From the sequence record NC_079175.1: DNA of 53,040 nt; one strand, given 5' to 3'. The translations under genes were made by a program, and so were the position numbers. Position 1 is the first letter of the stretch; each line of letters opens with the position of its first letter. Positions 390 to 52,770 of the stretch are shown here, in pieces. Source of the DNA: Escherichia phage PO103-1. Below the pieces are notes generated by a model. That model saw nothing but the letters and a program-made list of their open reading frames with translations. It ran no database searches and was not told the origin of the DNA.

Positions 390-1490
390 TTACAGCTCAA
401 ATCCGCCCAGGGCATTGGTGTCCACTTCGGAGTCAATCTGCCCGACAAGGTACGAACTAATCTCCGTTTCCTGTGGAGCAACTTGTACAGCATCCGAATT
501 CAACCATGCGTTAATCCAAGGAATCGGATTAGTAGCACCTTTGAATGGAGCATCCAATCCAACTGCTTGCATACGAATATTCGTGATATATTCCACATAT
601 CCGCACAGAATTTGCTTGTTTAAGCCAATCATTGAGCCATCTTTGAACAAATAATCAGCCCAATCTTTCTCTTGTTGGGCCACATTTTCGAACATTTCTT
701 GGCACTCTTGACGGCATTCTTTAGCAATTTCGGCCATTTCTGGGTCATCAACACCTCTTGCAAGAAGGTTCAGCATGTGTTGAGTTCCGGTCAAATGGAG
801 TGCTTCATCACGAGCAATTAAGCGAATAATCTTGGCATTTCCTTCCATTAACTTACGTTCAGCGAAGGCAAATGAGCAAGCAAAGCTGACATAAAAGCGA
901 ATTGCTTCCAGCGCATTAATGGACATGAGGCATAAATACAGCTTCTTCTTAAGCTCACGAAGAGAAACTTTATCTTCATGCAGATGCCACATGGAAGTCA
1001 GATGTTGAAGCTCGTCATAATATTGGGAGATGCCAATTGCACGCATTTTAATATGCTCATTCTCTACAATTTCATCGAAAATGACGCTAGGGTCTGTCAC
1101 GATATTACGAATAATGTGTGTGTAAGAACGGGAGTGAATTGTCTCTGAGAATGACCAAGTTTCAATCCAAGTTTCAAGCTCAGGAATGCTCACAATTGGC
1201 AGCAAAACTGTGGTTGGTCCACGCCCCTGAATGGAATCGAGCAGGATTTGGTATCGTAAATTGCTGGTGAAGATGTGCTTCTCGCATTCAGGCAGACCAG
1301 CATAATCAATTCGGTCCTGGCTAACATCAACCTCCTCAGGTCGCCAAAAGAAAGATAACTGCTTCTCGATTAACTTCTCGAAGATGCTGTACTTCTGTTG
1401 GTCATATCGGGCAACGTTAACGTTCTGACCAAAGAACATTGGCTCTAGTAGTTGGTTATTCTTGGTTTGTGAAAAGGTAGTGTAAGCCAT
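390..1490 (-). CDS. nrdB: Ribonucleotide reductase class Ia small (beta) subunit, host-like
   Basis: 366-aa ORF; N-terminus [28 protein letters not shown] and RDEALH regions match E. coli NrdB as I recall it almost residue for residue. Confidence 0.9.
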
Positions 1491-2044
1491 TACAGATTTC
1501 CTAGATACTCATAGAATTTATGGCCACCATAACGTCCCAGACCTTTAACATTCTTGAAGTTGCACTTCTCCGATGCTGTACAAAAGTGGGTTGCTTTGGT
1601 GACAGAGGGTTGATTAAATAATACAAAAGAGATTGCAACATTAATGGTGTCCAGAACTTGTTGTTGTTCTGTGGCATAATTAATCTTTGCTACATGCTTC
1701 CATTGAGCATTCTTCTTCTTTGCTTCTCGTGTCCATGCAAATTGATTGCGTTGATAGACAACATCACAAACGGTGTTAGCGAATGGCTTCCCGAACTCAG
1801 TTCTATTACGGACGACATTAGCTACCAGAATCTTTCCATGTTTGTCCTCACCGCGAGCTTCATACCAGATAACTTTAGTATAGCATTCTAGCTCTTTGCG
1901 TTGTGAAGAAGATAGTTTCAGACTTCCATTTAAATAAGAGTGACTTGCAAAATCTGTAATAGCAGAATTCACTGCCCCAACCGAAGCTGGGGCGTTGATG
2001 TGAACTAAAGCTGTCAGAAGTGCAAGGACTTTGAATGATAACAT
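1490..2044 (-). CDS. Secreted cell-wall hydrolase, SleB/CwlJ-like
   Basis: N-terminal signal-peptide-like segment ([18 protein letters not shown]); [22 protein letters not shown] motifs typical of the SleB/CwlJ hydrolase family. Confidence 0.65.
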
Positions 2045-2061
2045 TCGAGTTCCTTACCATT

Positions 2062-2403
2062 TCATCGTGCCTTCTTGAACCACGTCAAAGGATTAAGTTG
2101 TTTGATTGCGCCAGAGAAACTTTCCCTGACAGTTGTAATAATGAGGTTGGCACCAATGACACCAATCACAATAGCTAACACCAACTGCATAGTGACGTTA
2201 GTTGTGAAAGTTTCAAATGTACCTGCGACCTGAAATGCAAACAGCCCGATTAAGCTGCATAGCGTCGCATCCAGCAACGCTTTGCTTAAACCCTCACTCT
2301 CATATGCACCACGGATTAAGGCTGTCAGTCCAGCCAACAGTCCATGCCAAACGCCGTATTGGTGCATTGCTTCCCAAATCATCTGGAAAGTTTGTCTATC
2401 CAT
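2062..2403 (-). CDS. Small membrane protein, putative holin
   Basis: 113 aa with about three hydrophobic segments; lies immediately upstream (minus sense) of the secreted hydrolase. Confidence 0.4.
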   Translation of the reverse strand: MDRQTFQMIWEAMHQYGVWHGLLAGLTALIRGAYESEGLSKALLDATLCSLIGLFAFQVAGTFETFTTNVTMQLVLAIVIGVIGANLIITTVRESFSGAIKQLNPLTWFKKAR

Positions 2404-29658: not shown

Positions 29659-29669
29659 TCCAACTCCAA

Positions 29670-36565: not shown

Positions 36566-37500
36566 GTTTCTCTCCAGTTAAAATTTAAGTAAGTGCCCTG
36601 ACTATTACGAACATTACAAAACACTTATTAAATTTGATTCGAACCGCCCAAGTGAATCAGCCTTGTTTATGGGGACCATCGGGGAAAAGTATAAACCCGC
36701 TTAATGCTCGCATCATGTTTGAACATTAAGAACCCTCGACTTGCATATTTCATGTGTATAGGAACATAGTCTGGATTTTGAATCCAGCTAACTTCGGGAT
36801 GAGGAGTAACCCAAACGAAAGCCTGAACTTTCTTTCTGCACAACACAATCAGCGCAACTAAGCCGTATCGCTACGGTATGCCAGACGCTCTCTTGAGCCT
36901 TTTGAACAGAGGCATAACTGTTGGAGGTAGATTGGCGGATTCGGCGAACGCTAAGTTCACAATTACACAGTCGGCCTCGGATGCTTCATCCCTATCCCAT
37001 CGTGCAGGTTTAATTAACTCTACGAATCCATTGTTCGGGGGATTCACTGGAATCGAACCAGTCAGGTCGTTTCACCACGGTCAAGCCCGTACATACGAAA
37101 ATCCCATTGAATTTGGCGACCGATACGTTGGTCAGACGCTGTGGCCTTTACGCGGCCAACGTGCCATTAATGCTGGCAAGACAGAGCTAACGTTCTCAAG
37201 CACTTTGGCGAGGGTGTTCTCGGACACTGTTTTAGGAAGTGACCACCTGAACTTCTCGCGTTCATTACGGGACGTTCCAATCCTAGGAGGCAGCAATTTA
37301 TCATGTGTTATGCCCAGAGCACCAGGAATTACACCTACTATGCTACAAGTAGCTAGAGTCTCGTTATTTAAAGTCGCGCACTCCCTCGACTATGATATAC
37401 GTGTGTTTAAAGTCCCGTACCGGACTGCCAAATGAAATGCGATGGCGAGCATTTGTTTCACTGTACTTGTTTATAGATGCAACAGGCTCATCTTGTTCAC

Positions 37501-37710
37501 TCACTGTCGGGTAAGTTTCGAACACTTTTGTGCCCACGTTTCATTGTGGACTAAAATCTGTGTTTTGGTTTCGCGTGATAAGATTTTCACTTCTGCAACA
37601 TCCAAATAGATTGGTTGTGCAATTAAGCAATAATCACTTACGAACCCACTTTGAGAGCAACTCACTATCGACATTGCTATCAGAACTGCTAGACACTTCT
37701 TTCTGAACAT
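37501..37710 (-). CDS. Putative lipoprotein (o-spanin-like)
   Basis: Signal sequence with lipobox-like IVSC; start lies inside the 3' end of the upstream coiled-coil gene. Confidence 0.4.
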   Translation of the reverse strand: MFRKKCLAVLIAMSIVSCSQSGFVSDYCLIAQPIYLDVAEVKILSRETKTQILVHNETWAQKCSKLTRQ

Positions 37711-37870
37711 GCGATTTAATCTCGATAGATTCTTTTAATGAATCTAGTTGCTTCTCTGTGGCTTCCTGACGCTCCTCGGCTTTGCCTGAGCTTTTGCCTT
37801 TGAGGAACACTGCAATGATAATACCAAATGCAGTCAGGACGCCAAGAACTATTGATTTAAGCTGTTGCAT
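37634..37870 (-). CDS. Membrane-anchored coiled-coil protein (i-spanin-like)
   Basis: N-terminal transmembrane segment then charged helical region; strong RBS AAGGTGA; overlaps the lipoprotein gene. Confidence 0.45.
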   Translation of the reverse strand: MQQLKSIVLGVLTAFGIIIAVFLKGKSSGKAEERQEATEKQLDSLKESIEIKSHVQKEVSSSSDSNVDSELLSKWVRK

Positions 37871-37878
37871 AAATCACC

Positions 37879-38019
37879 TTAGATGGCGCACGCACCACTT
37901 GAGCAGTCGTTATCGCCCTCACCAGGAACGATTGCTTCTTCGTCCTGCTTCTTCTTAAGTTCTTCAATTGCTTCTTCGGCAGCACCGAAGTCTAAGTTAT
38001 CAAGTGCATCAAAATCCAT
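37879..38019 (-). CDS. Small acidic protein
   Basis: About 46 aa (MDFDALDNLDF...CSSGACAI); ATG with GGAG 7 nt upstream; the longer tracked ORF would overlap the tRNA-like element. Confidence 0.3.
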   Translation of the reverse strand: MDFDALDNLDFGAAEEAIEELKKKQDEEAIVPGEGDNDCSSGACAI

Positions 38020-38051
38020 AAGGACTCCAGTATTGCGAATTATTAAAGTGG

Positions 38052-38144
38052 GTGGACGAGGTTGGATTCGAACCAACGACACATCTGTCGAACAGATTGC
38101 TCTACCTGACTAAGCTCTGGAGCAGACCTTCTGAGCTACTCGTC
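38052..38144 (-). ncRNA. tRNA-like element (possible degenerate or unusual tRNA)
   Basis: Perfect 7-bp acceptor pairing GGACGAG/CTCGTCC, canonical UAGCUCAG and GGUAGAGC D-arm pieces, T-arm GUUGG-UUCGAAU-CCAAC; but about 24 extra nt in the D region and a 5-nt anticodon-position loop. Confidence 0.35.
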
Positions 38145-39017
38145 CAAAAATTGGGTGGGTTTTGGTAACGCAGGTTTTCCCGAACTGCGAGGCTTGTAGA
38201 ATCAGTGAGCCGCCTGTTTGGTATCTTCGGCCTGCCGTGGATTGATGGTCCCGACTCACTTCATCTCAGGTACGAGGCACTACTTTGCGAGTGCAAGCAG
38301 GTGTTGAACCCAAGTACCAACAGGCAACCTAACTTATCCCACCTTCATGGGCATCGTTGGTTTGAGCAGTTTATTTCCATGCTCAGGGCAACTCACTTTA
38401 GGGTGAATTAGGTTACGCAGTGCAGCTTCGAAGTCGCTGCCACAGGTTTGAGGTTCCTGTGTGGAGGGAAATCCAGAGGAGCACTTCCCCAAGGAGTTAC
38501 GTTTCAAATTGGCATAGCTTCTCACACCAAACCAATTGAAGACATTCCAGTGTGCTCGTCCGTCCTCTAGAAATATCCAACTGCATAATTAAGTTTGTAC
38601 TCTGTCACATCCCCACGCGCACTGAGGGACTTAAGCCTGCATTGCATCGCAGAATACAAATTAATTATTGCTCCGATTTATTAATCACATCTCGAAGCCA
38701 CAATGCGCCAAATTTGGTTACGTGGGATTGGAAGACCACGGAGAGAACTTAAATTTAATTAAGCTGCAACTCGCATTTCAGAATCATTTGCATTTATTTT
38801 AAATGAATAAAACAGCCGCATGATAACGAATGAAAACTACTTCAATGAACACTCTTGTCTGGGCCATGAGCTTGGGCATCGGCCTACCTCCCAACTCTAA
38901 TCACAAGAATGCTCATTGAAGCCCACTCACTCTGGAATGGGTTCAAGGCAGCACCGGAAAACTTCCAGTGCATGCCAGATCGATTTAGCTTAGTCTCTCA
39001 AGTTTGCCATCGGCAAC

Positions 39018-39356: not shown

Positions 39357-39437
39357 TTGTATATACCTTATATTGAATAGTTTTGCACGCCACGGTGACG
39401 TGACTTAGATAAATTAAAGAGCCTTTCTCTTTCCACA

Positions 39438-39454
39438 TCCAACTAATGTTTCAG
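39438..39454 (-). promoter_or_regulatory. Early-region conserved motif copy (minus sense ctgaaACATTAGTTGGA)
   Basis: About 80 nt upstream of 39018..39356. Confidence 0.35.
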
Positions 39455-39478: not shown

Positions 39479-40153
39479 TCAATATCTATTGAATCGTTCT
39501 AGTGTTTTATTTACTAAATCCTTTGTCTCAGCGACAGTGAGTTCAGTGATGATTGATTCGTCATAACCCTCAATCTGGATTGCTACAAAACGCCCAACTC
39601 CAGTTACAGTGAGTCGGTTTGTTCTGTCACGAACAACTACACCAGCTTCTTGCGCGACTGCTCGCAACAATTTCCAGCGTAAAGTTCGATTTGGTACAGC
39701 AAAGCCCTTTGCCGAGAACAACTCTTTCATGAGTTCTCCAAGACAAACAGCTTCAATGTTTTGTCCTCTTCCAACTAATTCTTGCAACAGGCACAGTGTC
39801 AACATTTCTAAATTGTTGAAGTGTCCAGCGCGCTCCAAATTAAAGAACTCTGGAGGAACAGTTGAACGAGATTTAACAGCTTGCTTGTATGCACGTTCTT
39901 CTTCCTGTGCAGCAAGCATCAGCATCTCTGGCTTAATGTATTTCATAGCAGAGAAGCCAGCGCGTGTGGCTTTAATTATGCGACAAGCCTCTTTCATCTT
40001 GTAGCGTTGCCACTCACCGCGCTTCGATTCTGGATTAAAATGGACCCACATAATGATAACATCTTCCTTGGCAAGATAGACGGCATCATTATCATTGAGC
40101 CATTGCTTACACGTTGATAGTGCAATCTCTTTGTCATCATCATGATAAGACAT
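39479..40153 (-). CDS. Hypothetical protein
   Basis: Likely start MSYHDDDK at 40153 abutting the upstream gene stop. Confidence 0.45.
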   Translation of the reverse strand: MSYHDDDKEIALSTCKQWLNDNDAVYLAKEDVIIMWVHFNPESKRGEWQRYKMKEACRIIKATRAGFSAMKYIKPEMLMLAAQEEERAYKQAVKSRSTVPPEFFNLERAGHFNNLEMLTLCLLQELVGRGQNIEAVCLGELMKELFSAKGFAVPNRTLRWKLLRAVAQEAGVVVRDRTNRLTVTGVGRFVAIQIEGYDESIITELTVAETKDLVNKTLERFNRY

Positions 40154-40762: not shown

Positions 40763-41403
40763 AGGAACTCTCCAATTTTCGATTCAGTGTTTGTGACTTC
40801 TCTTCTCATCTTTTGGCCCAGGAACAGGCCACAGGGTAGCGCAGGAAGGCCGAAAATCGGGCCGCTGCCTACCGTTTGTGTCAATTCTGGATAACTGCAT
40901 TGGCGAAGGGTTACTCCCGTTAGGGTGCGATACGCTAATCACATGAGTGTTGTCGCCTTGCGGCTCAGGCGTGTCACAGAGGCTTTGCAACCCTTCCCAA
41001 TACATTCACCCAATCCACCTGCTTTGGCATAGCTGGTGGCGCGGTTTTGTGCGGATTATGCCACTCTAAGCCCTGTTTGTCCGACTTCCTCAGAGCACCA
41101 GCAGCTTGTGGCACAAACCTATTTTCGAATGACTAACATAAGCATGAGGCATAACCCTCTAATTATTCAGCCCTAACAGCTTGCTTATTTAGTTCCAATT
41201 CATCCCAATACATCGCCTATAACAAGTGAATAGCTTTTCTGCGAAGAAGTATTCCGGCCCTATGGCCTATGTTAAAAGATAAATGTAATATGATGGAAAC
41301 ATTCCATCGAAAAGAACTTTGTAGAACGAATCGAACGTTCTCACACGCCTTGGTACCAGACGGACTACCTAGTTACAAAGTTCTTATCTGATGTTGTTTC
41401 AAT

Positions 41404-41420
41404 TCCAACTAATGTCGAAT
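41404..41420 (-). promoter_or_regulatory. Early-region conserved motif copy
   Basis: attcgACATTAGTTGGA at the edge of the 40763-41408 non-coding block. Confidence 0.3.
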
Positions 41421-41585: not shown

Positions 41586-41590
41586 TTCAT

Positions 41591-41608
41591 CTCCAACTAA
41601 TGTTTCAG
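41591..41608 (-). promoter_or_regulatory. Early-region conserved motif copy
   Basis: ctgaaACATTAGTTGGAG; its GGAG doubles as the RBS of the zinc-ribbon gene. Confidence 0.35.
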
Positions 41609-42878: not shown

Positions 42879-43274
42879 TTATGCTGGAAGTTCGAAGTGT
42901 GGTGCATCAAGGAACTTGGCCCATTTCACTGGCTTAGTGAAGGTCCGTTCCCATGTTCCGCCCCAACGAATGACAACTCCAAGCTCTTCTGCGGCTTTGA
43001 ACATGTGTTCAGCTACAATTTGGAATCGTTCGAGGTCATTCCAGTCAATTGGGTACGGCGCAATGTCCAAAGCGTTGCCTGACATGTGTCGGCTAACTGA
43101 AACTTTGGTTGCACCCTGTTTTAACAGTTCTTGTTGACGTTCATAAGAGCGTAAACCTTCCAAAACAGCTACATCAAAAGGCATCGTTTCACATGCACGT
43201 TTGAAAACTGCAACTAATGAAGGATTTACTCCCTTAAGTCGGTCTAAAGAACGTTGACCGAGCTTAACATTCAT
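42879..43274 (-). CDS. Peptidase M15 family cell-wall endopeptidase (T5-type endolysin-like)
   Basis: SRHMSGNALDIAPY, IDWNDLERF and APHFEL closely parallel the T5 L-alanyl-D-glutamate peptidase motifs as I recall them. Confidence 0.75.
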   Translation of the reverse strand: MNVKLGQRSLDRLKGVNPSLVAVFKRACETMPFDVAVLEGLRSYERQQELLKQGATKVSVSRHMSGNALDIAPYPIDWNDLERFQIVAEHMFKAAEELGVVIRWGGTWERTFTKPVKWAKFLDAPHFELPA

Positions 43275-49264: not shown

Positions 49265-49553
49265 TTTATTCTCCTAAGTTAAAAGAACTCCCTACAGAAC
49301 GATTGTGGAGGTCTTGTCTTACCTCAATCCACCTTAAAGTTGTAGGGAGTTATATAGTATTCCTGTGTGTGCCGCCATCAGGGACTTCCTAGTCTGGTGG
49401 GCGCGTTGCAATCCAGCAATATACCACACGTTTTTCACAGGCTATATATGTGACACACAAAGTGTCGAAAAACTACAATGATTAGCTTGGAGACATAATC
49501 TCTCTAAAATCTGTCACACAATTTCAGCAGAATTTACAGAGATTTGGTCTTAT

Positions 49554-49574
49554 TCACATGCAACTAATGATAAA
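49554..49574 (-). promoter_or_regulatory. Early-region conserved motif copy
   Basis: tCATTAGTTGCATGTG at the lower edge of the non-coding repeat region. Confidence 0.3.
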
Positions 49575-50027: not shown

Positions 50028-50407
50028 TGTTGCTCAAAATCGGGGCGGGCTACGGGATTAGTTTCGCAGCTTTGCTCCGACTCTTCTCTTCTTTCGAATT
50101 CTGATTGAAAGAAAGAAGCATGTCCAAAAGTTCCAATATTATCAAAGTTATCTCCCGGCTTGTGGGTGGGCCTTTATAATAGGAGATGGAGCAATATTGT
50201 CGCAATTGAACATGCTATAGGTGAAGTACAAGTTTCGAATAGATATTCCTACTCTAAGTCATGGTTGCTGGAACTGTAGGTGGCCTACCTAGGGAGTTCA
50301 ATGATTGCCACATCATTACAACACTGTAACTCAAAGCTGACATGCTGAATGTTTCTAGAATGATTCAACATGACATGCGGAATATTTCTCCGTATTCTTT
50401 TACTTCA

Positions 50408-50427
50408 CATCCAACTAATGTTACAAC
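50408..50427 (-). promoter_or_regulatory. Early-region conserved motif copy
   Basis: gttgtaACATTAGTTGGATG between the RNAP-adjacent small gene and the non-coding region. Confidence 0.35.
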
Positions 50428-52679: not shown

Positions 52680-52749
52680 TTGTAAGTCTCCAAGATTGTG
52701 TATGATTTAACTGAAACGGATTATAATAGCGTAGCCATTACACAATTCA

Positions 52750-52770
52750 CTTCCAACTAATATCACAAAC
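52750..52770 (-). promoter_or_regulatory. Early-region conserved motif copy upstream of the RNA polymerase gene
   Basis: gtgatATTAGTTGGAAG about 75 nt upstream of the RNAP ATG; a TATAAT hexamer lies about 30 nt further downstream. Confidence 0.35.

Follow-up and report, generated by a model that had tools for sequence, protein, structure and literature searches.

The closest described counterpart of the locus reported here is the two-component spanin of phage phiEcoM-GJ1, which SpaninDB (Kongari et al. 2018, PMC6139136) lists as overlapped (‘ovl’), in frame +1 and with an overlap of 77 nt. Its i-spanin (14724-14961) has 78 aa, with a coiled coil at 26-58 and a periplasmic part of 55 residues, 35 of them helical, while its o-spanin (14884-15094) has 69 aa, 52 of them periplasmic (PMC6139136). 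In lambda, a type II inner-membrane protein, Rz, is paired with an outer-membrane lipoprotein, Rz1, in an embedded arrangement. The T4 genes pseT.3 and pseT.2 encode experimentally verified spanins that complement lambda Rz/Rz1, and are unlinked to the genes for holin and endolysin (t, e). Of the 528 known systems, 507 have one or more periplasmic cysteines that could form homotypic disulfides, and the commonest SpaninDB class has no such cysteine in the i-spanin and two in the o-spanin (PMC6139136).

The window analysed here, whose length of 53,040 nt agrees with that of related genomes, 51.2-55.8 kb, is a complete phiEcoM-GJ1-like myophage genome with its full gene set (Chaseviridae, Carltongylesvirus). 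Its orientation is reversed with respect to phiEcoM-GJ1 and ST32, which places the genes on the minus strand. Two overlapping genes in this genome very probably encode an i-spanin and an o-spanin that would disrupt the outer membrane of the host during lysis. The features of the locus are the following.

37879..38019, minus strand: conserved acidic 46-aa ORF directly upstream of the i-spanin gene, its product ending in D-C-x(2-4)-C-(K/A)-I
37873..37881, minus strand: Shine-Dalgarno sequence TAAGGTGAT of the i-spanin gene, which includes the TAA stop of the upstream 46-aa ORF
37634..37870, minus strand: candidate i-spanin gene, 78 aa, ATG start (from ORF, RBS and hydropathy)
37802..37855, minus strand: predicted transmembrane segment SIVLGVLTAFGIIIAVFL, i-spanin codons 6-23
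37501..37710, minus strand: candidate o-spanin gene, 69 aa, ATG start (from the PS51257 rule, phrog_1275 and conservation)
37657..37710, minus strand: predicted signal peptide (residues 1-17) and Cys18 codon (37657..37659), with lipobox S-I-V-S-C
37634..37710, minus strand: dual-coding overlap of 77 nt, i-spanin residues 54-78 and o-spanin residues 1-26

The i-spanin (78 aa, translated from 37634..37870 on the minus strand) reads MQQLKSIVLGVLTAFGIIIAVFLKGKSSGKAEERQEATEKQLDSLKESIEIKSHVQKEVSSSSDSNVDSELLSKWVRK. A hydropathy scan finds a single hydrophobic stretch, at residues 6-23, with a Kyte-Doolittle 19-residue maximum of 2.39. The charged tail beyond it comprises some 55 mainly helical residues, and the protein contains no cysteine. 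A single-sequence AlphaFold2 model of moderate confidence (pLDDT 70.6) has the transmembrane helix at 2-29, followed by helices at 33-59 and 66-77. The sequence TAAGGTGAT agrees with the Shine-Dalgarno consensus at 7 of 9 positions; its 3' end lies 3 nt, and the end of its AAGGTG core 4 nt, from the ATG. Across the family alignment a juxtamembrane motif, KG(K/R)SSGK, is found (here KGKSSGK), together with a C-terminal motif, V..V..SD..VD.EL...(W/F).R (here SD..VD.EL...W.R). One Lys or Arg residue flanks the transmembrane segment on its N-terminal side and four on its C-terminal side, so that an N-in orientation is not favoured. Since lambda Rz, whose topology is established, has the same pattern (1 versus 3), these charge counts are uninformative on the topology of the i-spanin.

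The o-spanin (69 aa, translated from 37501..37710 on the minus strand) reads MFRKKCLAVLIAMSIVSCSQSGFVSDYCLIAQPIYLDVAEVKILSRETKTQILVHNETWAQKCSKLTRQ. Its start codon is found at nt 161 of the 237-nt i-spanin gene, in the +1 frame, and the ORF runs for 133 nt past the i-spanin stop. Its N-terminus conforms to the PROSITE lipoprotein rule PS51257, with R3, K4 and K5, an h-region free of charge, and Cys18; three Lys or Arg residues fall within the first seven, AVLIAMSIVS immediately precedes C18, and residue +2 is Ser. A common spanin lipobox rule, [ILMFTV][^REKD][GAS]C, also fits. Given the Ser at +2, the Asp signal for retention in the inner membrane is missing and sorting to the outer membrane is expected; combined with a lipobox of signal peptidase II type, this predicts lipidation at Cys18 and Lol-dependent sorting to the inner leaflet of the outer membrane, leaving a predicted mature lipoprotein of 52 aa. 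The RBS of this gene is weak. Beyond the lipobox lie a conserved motif, TK.QIL.HN..W..C, and two periplasmic cysteines, C28 and C63. In an alignment of 11 diverse sequences C18, C28, I34, H55 and C63 are invariant, and K49, I52, L53 and N56 are nearly so across the family; in a wider set the three cysteines are kept, but Shewanella phage 1/4 has Asn at position 55. A single-sequence AlphaFold2 model (pLDDT 51) is uninformative save for a possible C-terminal helix.

An earlier, sequence-only reading of this DNA had described 37634..37870 as an N-terminal transmembrane segment with a charged helical region behind a strong RBS, and 37501..37710 as beginning inside its 3' end and carrying a signal peptide with a lipobox-like IVSC. 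Both descriptions stand on the hydropathy, AlphaFold2, Shine-Dalgarno, PS51257 and overlap results just given. Its interpretation, an overlapped i-spanin/o-spanin architecture, is borne out by PHROG matches and by the SpaninDB entry for phiEcoM-GJ1, with the same lengths and overlap. The i-spanin matches phrog_1026 ‘Rz-like spanin’ with an E-value of 4.3e-20 (residues 1-78 on profile positions 4-84 of 85), and the o-spanin phrog_1275, likewise ‘Rz-like spanin’, with an E-value of 9.8e-18 (residues 1-67 on 4-73 of 81). The phiEcoM-GJ1 pair is identical to that of the window in its lengths of 78 and 69 aa, in its 77-nt overlap in the +1 frame and in lying upstream of the gene for flavin-dependent thymidylate synthase. 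The i-spanin is 98.7% identical to phiEcoM-GJ1 gp31, from which it differs by point substitutions only; its I18 is Leu in all 13 relatives compared. The o-spanin is 98.6% identical to its phiEcoM-GJ1 counterpart, an ORF left without annotation there, with K65 in the tail in place of Gln, and 100% identical in JL1, EcoM1, ST32 and Bp7.

The pair is thus already known: SpaninDB has it for the type phage, and it is annotated both in RefSeq, where gp31 and its orthologues are labelled ‘Rz-like spanin’, and in PHROGs; its listing in a published spanin database makes it an ordinary one. A Pfam scan of both proteins yielded no Rz or Rz1 family even at E <= 10, only sub-threshold noise, so the spanin assignment rests on architecture, context and the curation of PHROG and SpaninDB. 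The pair is analogous to lambda Rz/Rz1 and is not demonstrably homologous to it. Public annotation of the locus is uneven. Most deposited annotations omit the overlapped o-spanin ORF, and a large protein database holds just two entries homologous to it, a scarcity attributable to the known bias of gene callers, which under-call embedded and overlapped o-spanins (PMC6139136). In several public records the i-spanin bears a wrong label, ‘endolysin’ or ‘L-alanyl-D-glutamate peptidase’, the CPT GenBank record of Mangalitsa gives both ORFs as ‘hypothetical’, and the genome announcements of Mangalitsa and Myduc make no statement about lysis genes. A literature search found no experimental test of any member of this spanin family.

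The pair may be compared with the two experimentally characterised systems. It resembles lambda Rz/Rz1 in combining a putative type II inner-membrane protein with a predicted outer-membrane lipoprotein, in the +1 frame and in the charges flanking the transmembrane segment. The lambda genes, however, are embedded whereas those of the window are overlapped; the periplasmic domain of Rz has 130 residues against 55 and the protein two cysteines against none, and Rz1 is proline-rich, unlike the window o-spanin. With T4 PseT.3/PseT.2 the pair shares an unlinked location and the distribution of cysteines, none in the periplasmic part of the i-spanin and two in the o-spanin (here C28 and C63). The T4 proteins differ in having no detectable sequence similarity to those of the window, separated genes and lengths of 117 and 83 aa. 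The remark of the sequence-only reading that both proteins are shorter than typical also proves correct: the two periplasmic parts together come to about 107 residues, compared with about 170 in lambda (130 of Rz plus 40 of mature Rz1), yet this lies inside the published range for spanins of 62-300. Shorter i-spanin periplasmic domains are listed in SpaninDB for phiHSIC (45), phi1402 (47) and phi1422 (54) (PMC6139136).

The genes expected to act with the pair lie elsewhere in the genome.

2062..2403, minus strand: lambda-S-type holin, 113 aa (PF05106, E 2e-8; phrog_126, E 2e-18; ‘holin’ ORF77 of ST32)
1490..2044, minus strand: SleB-like cell-wall hydrolase, 184 aa, hydrophobic segment at the N-terminus (PF07486, E 1e-15)
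42879..43274, minus strand: T5-type L-alanyl-D-glutamate peptidase (M15) endolysin (phrog_465, E 5e-54; PF13539)

The SleB-like hydrolase gene is directly downstream of the holin gene, both at the end of the late region, and the M15 endolysin gene, alongside which there is neither a holin nor a membrane protein, is 5.0 kb upstream of the pair. These two hydrolases had been overlooked in the sequence-only reading. Its distance of about 35 kb between the pair and the holin-like gene agrees with the 35.1 kb measured here, for which the unlinked T4 genes provide a precedent. The placement next to a holin or endolysin that characterises a lysis cassette is accordingly absent from the window but, since the T4 spanins are also unlinked, such a location is no bar to the assignment. 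The same layout is seen in ST32, in the coordinates of which the spanins lie at 16.2 kb and the holin at 51.1 kb. Like the type species, this phage thus has a complete holin/endolysin/spanin set dispersed across three loci.

A 3.1-kb stretch around the pair matches 61 phage records, 40 of which cover at least 80% of it; the best-scoring 25 of the 61 are 91-96% identical, and all fall within the phiEcoM-GJ1 group (Chaseviridae, Cleopatravirinae, Carltongylesvirus and related genera). When the gene arrangement was compared in relatives, the pair was found in each of the six Chaseviridae genera examined, always upstream of thymidylate synthase or a nucleotide-metabolism block, and homologues were found in the lysis cassettes of other phages. 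The overlap measures 80-116 nt in PM1, Myduc and Orgeat. The nearest phage-type promoter-like motif upstream of the pair is CATTAGTTGGATGTGGA at 39432..39448, and no other such motif occurs between it and the replication genes. A site in the middle region, below this motif and upstream of the replication genes, suggests that the pair is probably expressed from middle transcripts, well before the late holin, as in T4. Scans for sigma-70 promoters and intrinsic terminators around the cassette gave fewer matches than in shuffled sequences.

In the mechanism that we favour, the inner membrane would hold the i-spanin, whose C-terminus would face the periplasm. Signal peptidase II would process the o-spanin, and this protein, with lipid at Cys18, would be sorted to the outer membrane. 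On the model of lambda Rz/Rz1 and T4 PseT.3/PseT.2, from which the subsequent steps are inferred, the C-terminal parts of the two proteins would bind each other in the periplasm, the i-spanin through its SD..VD.EL..W.R motif and the o-spanin through its C28...TK.QIL.HN..W..C63 domain. The complexes would be threaded through the peptidoglycan mesh, where they would accumulate harmlessly. Once the holin (2062..2403) had triggered and the muralytic enzyme or enzymes had destroyed the peptidoglycan, the complexes would be free to oligomerise or change conformation and to fuse the inner and outer membranes, so that nothing further would hold back the virions. The distribution of cysteines, as in T4, suggests that the o-spanin may form homodimers through disulfides made by the host Dsb system.

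The periplasm is roughly 20-25 nm wide. The i-spanin tail, if helical throughout, would extend for about 8 nm and the o-spanin is estimated to span about 8-17 nm, so that bridging the periplasm would need a largely extended o-spanin. This family of ‘mini-spanins’ is widespread; its i-spanins have 68-101 aa, and the periplasmic residues of a pair add up to only about 105. It is conceivable, albeit unlikely, that the family works differently from lambda Rz/Rz1 and, in the Chaseviridae, also with the acidic 46-aa protein. On that view its members might, for example, bridge the periplasm only after removal of the peptidoglycan has let the membranes come close together, and the 46-aa protein (37879..38019), for which a Pfam scan gave only sub-threshold noise, might serve as a third component, in a regulatory or chaperone role, and be expressed alongside the middle genes. 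The short-spanin family would offer a convenient minimal system for the study of spanin mechanism, an idea that is not new from this window; the residual novelty is confined to the biology of the family and to the conserved small acidic ORF upstream.

The function of the pair is best judged from its homologues outside the Chaseviridae. A tblastn search with the o-spanin retrieved 100 phage records ranging well past that family, and a scan of IMG/VR found seven loci, largely the same isolates. In all nine contexts examined, the lipoprotein ORF homologous to the o-spanin begins inside the end of a gene for a transmembrane protein that has 68-101 aa and the same motifs; the shortest i-spanin, of 68 aa, is that of the Shewanella phage relative. 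In seven of the nine, from unrelated phages, the pair comes after a holin gene, an endolysin or lysozyme gene, or both.

HK639: holin, holin and endolysin, then the pair
Pseudomonas phage AF: endolysin, then the pair
Fostie: holin and endolysin, then the pair
PdC23: lysozyme and holin, then the pair
Klebsiella ST974-OXA48phi18.2 prophage: holin and lysozyme, one unnamed ORF, then the pair
Halfdan: holin and endolysin, then the pair
Metagenomic UViG: a 285-aa ORF, lysozyme-like as judged by eye, then the pair

The AsXd-1 context is unannotated, with gene sizes like those of HK639, and that of the Shewanella phage is uninformative. The i-spanins of HK639/mEp390, AF, Halfdan, PdC23 and Fostie have, as in the window, a transmembrane segment, G(K/H)xxG(K/S), a helix and a D.EL...(W/F).R end, and their o-spanins a lipobox and C...PIY...TK.QIL.HN..W..C; the overlaps are 77-125 nt, and we assume these pairs to belong to the same PHROG families. 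In HK639, AF, Halfdan, PdC23 and Fostie the pair ends the lysis cassette, whereas in the window 35 kb separate the pair from the holin gene and 5 kb from the nearest endolysin gene. The lysis-cassette placement of the homologous pairs is the strongest functional evidence short of experiment.

The same placement bears on a different reading, that the two proteins form an envelope-modifying or superinfection-exclusion module. An inner-membrane protein and an outer-membrane lipoprotein, both of early or middle expression, would then block receptors or the entry of DNA, as do T5 Llp, T4 Imm/Sp or lambdoid lipoproteins of the Cor/Bor type. Such a role would suit genes of the early/middle region so far from the holin, and proteins that are unusually short for spanins; in Mangalitsa, moreover, the corresponding variable region holds a T4 Imm-like superinfection immunity gene. 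The T4 spanin genes, though, are also unlinked and not late, Pfam and PHROG searches revealed no similarity to the Llp, Imm, Sp or Cor families, and the two protein families always co-occur and are nearly always overlapped, which is the signature of spanins. Since at least seven unrelated phages have homologues at the end of a holin, endolysin or lysozyme cassette, we consider an exclusion module very unlikely and reject it in favour of the spanin pair.

Sequence variation in the pair was counted among 14 sequences at the Carltongylesvirus level. Only 1 of the 77 sites in the overlap is variable, compared with 63 of the 293 single-coding sites (Fisher p = 2e-6), these being divided between the i-only part (33/160) and the o-only part (30/133); such a depletion is expected with dual coding. 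Third positions of the o-frame hold 11 of the 17 variable sites that the o-only part has ahead of its recombinant C-terminal tails (p = 0.008). In Faunus and 4HA13, which represent sister genera, the same two proteins overlap by just 4 nt, the i-spanin ending in ...SSD..VDKEL.D.WTRG and the o-spanin retaining its lipobox and conserved core. The retention of the motifs in genes that are nearly separated indicates that each frame is selected on its own account. [quoted passage not shown] These data weigh against a pair that is truly homologous to spanins but dispensable or vestigial here, the outer membrane being disrupted otherwise, by a muralytic enzyme or a disruptin-like peptide. Two different wall hydrolases are indeed encoded at separate loci, the periplasmic domains are short, and part of PMC6139136 discusses spanin-less routes. 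Against this, selection on both frames is strong in every sequenced relative, a disrupted copy occurs in no relative examined, and the pair is the only spanin candidate in the genome; a vestigial status is therefore highly improbable, and a functional spanin pair remains the preferred reading.

A control for chance covered all six frames and all start codons of the whole window, alongside 100 block-shuffled sequences. The o-spanin is the only ORF in the window that obeys the lipobox rule, and only in this pair does a lipobox ORF overlap or abut, at the 3' end, an ORF that encodes an N-terminal transmembrane segment. The shuffles contained a mean of 2.2 lipobox ORFs each, so that a lipobox by itself is not above chance, and a transmembrane-lipobox pair arose in 2 of the 100. 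The proposal that only the 78-aa membrane protein is real and the 69-aa lipobox ORF an untranslated chance frame, for which one might cite that background frequency, the weak RBS and the scarcity of the ORF in annotations and databases, can be dismissed almost entirely in view of the rarity of such pairs in shuffles, the presence of the ORF in six Chaseviridae genera and many unrelated phages, its invariant residues, the third-position bias and depleted overlap variation, the nearly non-overlapping genes of Faunus and 4HA13, and the known under-calling of overlapped o-spanins. The overlapped o-spanin ORF, left out of most annotations in the genus, is thus to be regarded as a real gene, and the importance of the present analysis lies mostly in correct annotation.

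ARAGORN found no tRNA in the window, and Rfam gave only a sub-threshold partial tRNA match. No remnant of an HNH endonuclease was found in the window; in DE15 and 2KOFFS an HNH endonuclease gene follows the o-spanin.

The end of the o-spanin proves to be exchangeable among relatives. Its 3' end differs in the final four to six residues, past the invariant Cys63, and tails reading ...KCSKLTRQ, ...KCSKR, ...KCSKQ and ...KCSNLPDSE were seen at loci including those of DE15, 2KOFFS, MLP1 and UViG_3300007747. The extreme C-terminus therefore tolerates replacement. In both DE15 and 2KOFFS the tail swap coincides with insertion of an HNH endonuclease downstream, lying immediately 3' of the o-spanin gene. 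This cargo at the flanks of the spanin cassette differs by relative, that of Mangalitsa being a superinfection immunity gene resembling T4 Imm. The stretches on either side of the cassette, 36566..37500 and 38170..39017 (about 0.9 kb each), are without convincing minus-strand ORFs, unlike the rest of the genome, which is densely packed, and are mosaic between relatives, with 77-98% identity and indels. A plus-strand ORF of 185 amino acids at 36878..37435 is probably spurious.

On its upstream side the i-spanin gene is adjoined by a small ORF:

37879..38019, minus strand: strongly acidic ORF of 46 amino acids (MDFDALDNLDFGAAEEAIEELKKKQDEEAIVPGEGDNDCSSGACAI)

[quoted passage not shown] Equivalents at the matching position in the Chaseviridae relatives Faunus, Myduc and Orgeat share the C-terminal ending D-C-x(2-4)-C-(K/A)-I; none was found upstream of the i-spanin in 4HA13 or PM1, and the 46-residue product had no family match in Pfam or PHROG.

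Further upstream is an element whose status as a tRNA gene is ambiguous:

38046..38140 (approximate), minus strand: 95-nt element, labelled 'tRNA-Arg' in the phiEcoM-GJ1 and ST32 records

ARAGORN detected no tRNA gene in the whole window; the phiEcoM-GJ1 copy of the element is called tRNA-Leu(cag) by the same program. The Rfam tRNA model scored the window copy at 27.9 bits, below its gathering score of 29, with only model positions 9-63 matched. By eye, the acceptor and T arms are intact, about 22 additional nucleotides resemble a duplicated D-arm, and the anticodon loop possibly reads UCG. The element may be an aberrant tRNA, or a tRNA with an insert.

Beyond this, a motif (C/A)ATTAGTTGGA... 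agrees with what the phiEcoM-GJ1 annotation lists as 'putative phage promoters'. With up to three mismatches allowed, it has eight minus-strand sites in the window against 1.6 expected, concentrated in the early/middle region:

39432..39448, minus strand: promoter-like site
39764..39780, minus strand: promoter-like site
41398..41414, minus strand: promoter-like site
41586..41602, minus strand: promoter-like site
49553..49569, minus strand: promoter-like site
50404..50420, minus strand: promoter-like site
52746..52762, minus strand: promoter-like site

From 39432 to the replication genes no such site was found, save one weak match at 29659.

Two distinct muralytic enzymes are predicted in the genome, at separate loci:

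1490..2403, minus strand, end of the late region: SleB-like Hydrolase_2 protein and lambda-S-type holin pair
42879..43274, minus strand, early/middle region: T5-like M15 peptidase of cytoplasmic type, without an adjoining holin

The SleB-like protein carries a hydrophobic N-terminal segment that is signal or SAR-like. Public records attach enzymatic names to the i-spanin itself, its orthologues being called 'endolysin' in Yersinia phages PYps23T, PYps4T, PYps16N and PYps16T (MW147598/MW147600-02) and 'L-alanyl-D-glutamate peptidase' in Pel53 (PP952070); both names are probable annotation errors. The Pel53 record bears the host label Staphylococcus hyicus, but the genome is that of a member of the Chaseviridae: its i-spanin gene is approximately 82% identical to that of phiEcoM-GJ1-like coliphages and, despite the label, it encodes a predicted spanin pair of Gram-negative type. 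The Mangalitsa spanin ORFs are both 'hypothetical' in GenBank, whereas the RefSeq copy gives them as Rz-like spanins.

A Baltic sea-ice phage with a genome of 134 kb carries a pair of the same family, even shorter than that of the window, in a context without annotation:

1644..1974 of the Shewanella phage 1/4 locus: spanin-family pair

Its i-spanin, of 68 amino acids, has the GKSSGK motif of the window i-spanin, and the mature part of the overlapping 70-residue o-spanin opens ...VISDYCLIA, as does that of the window.
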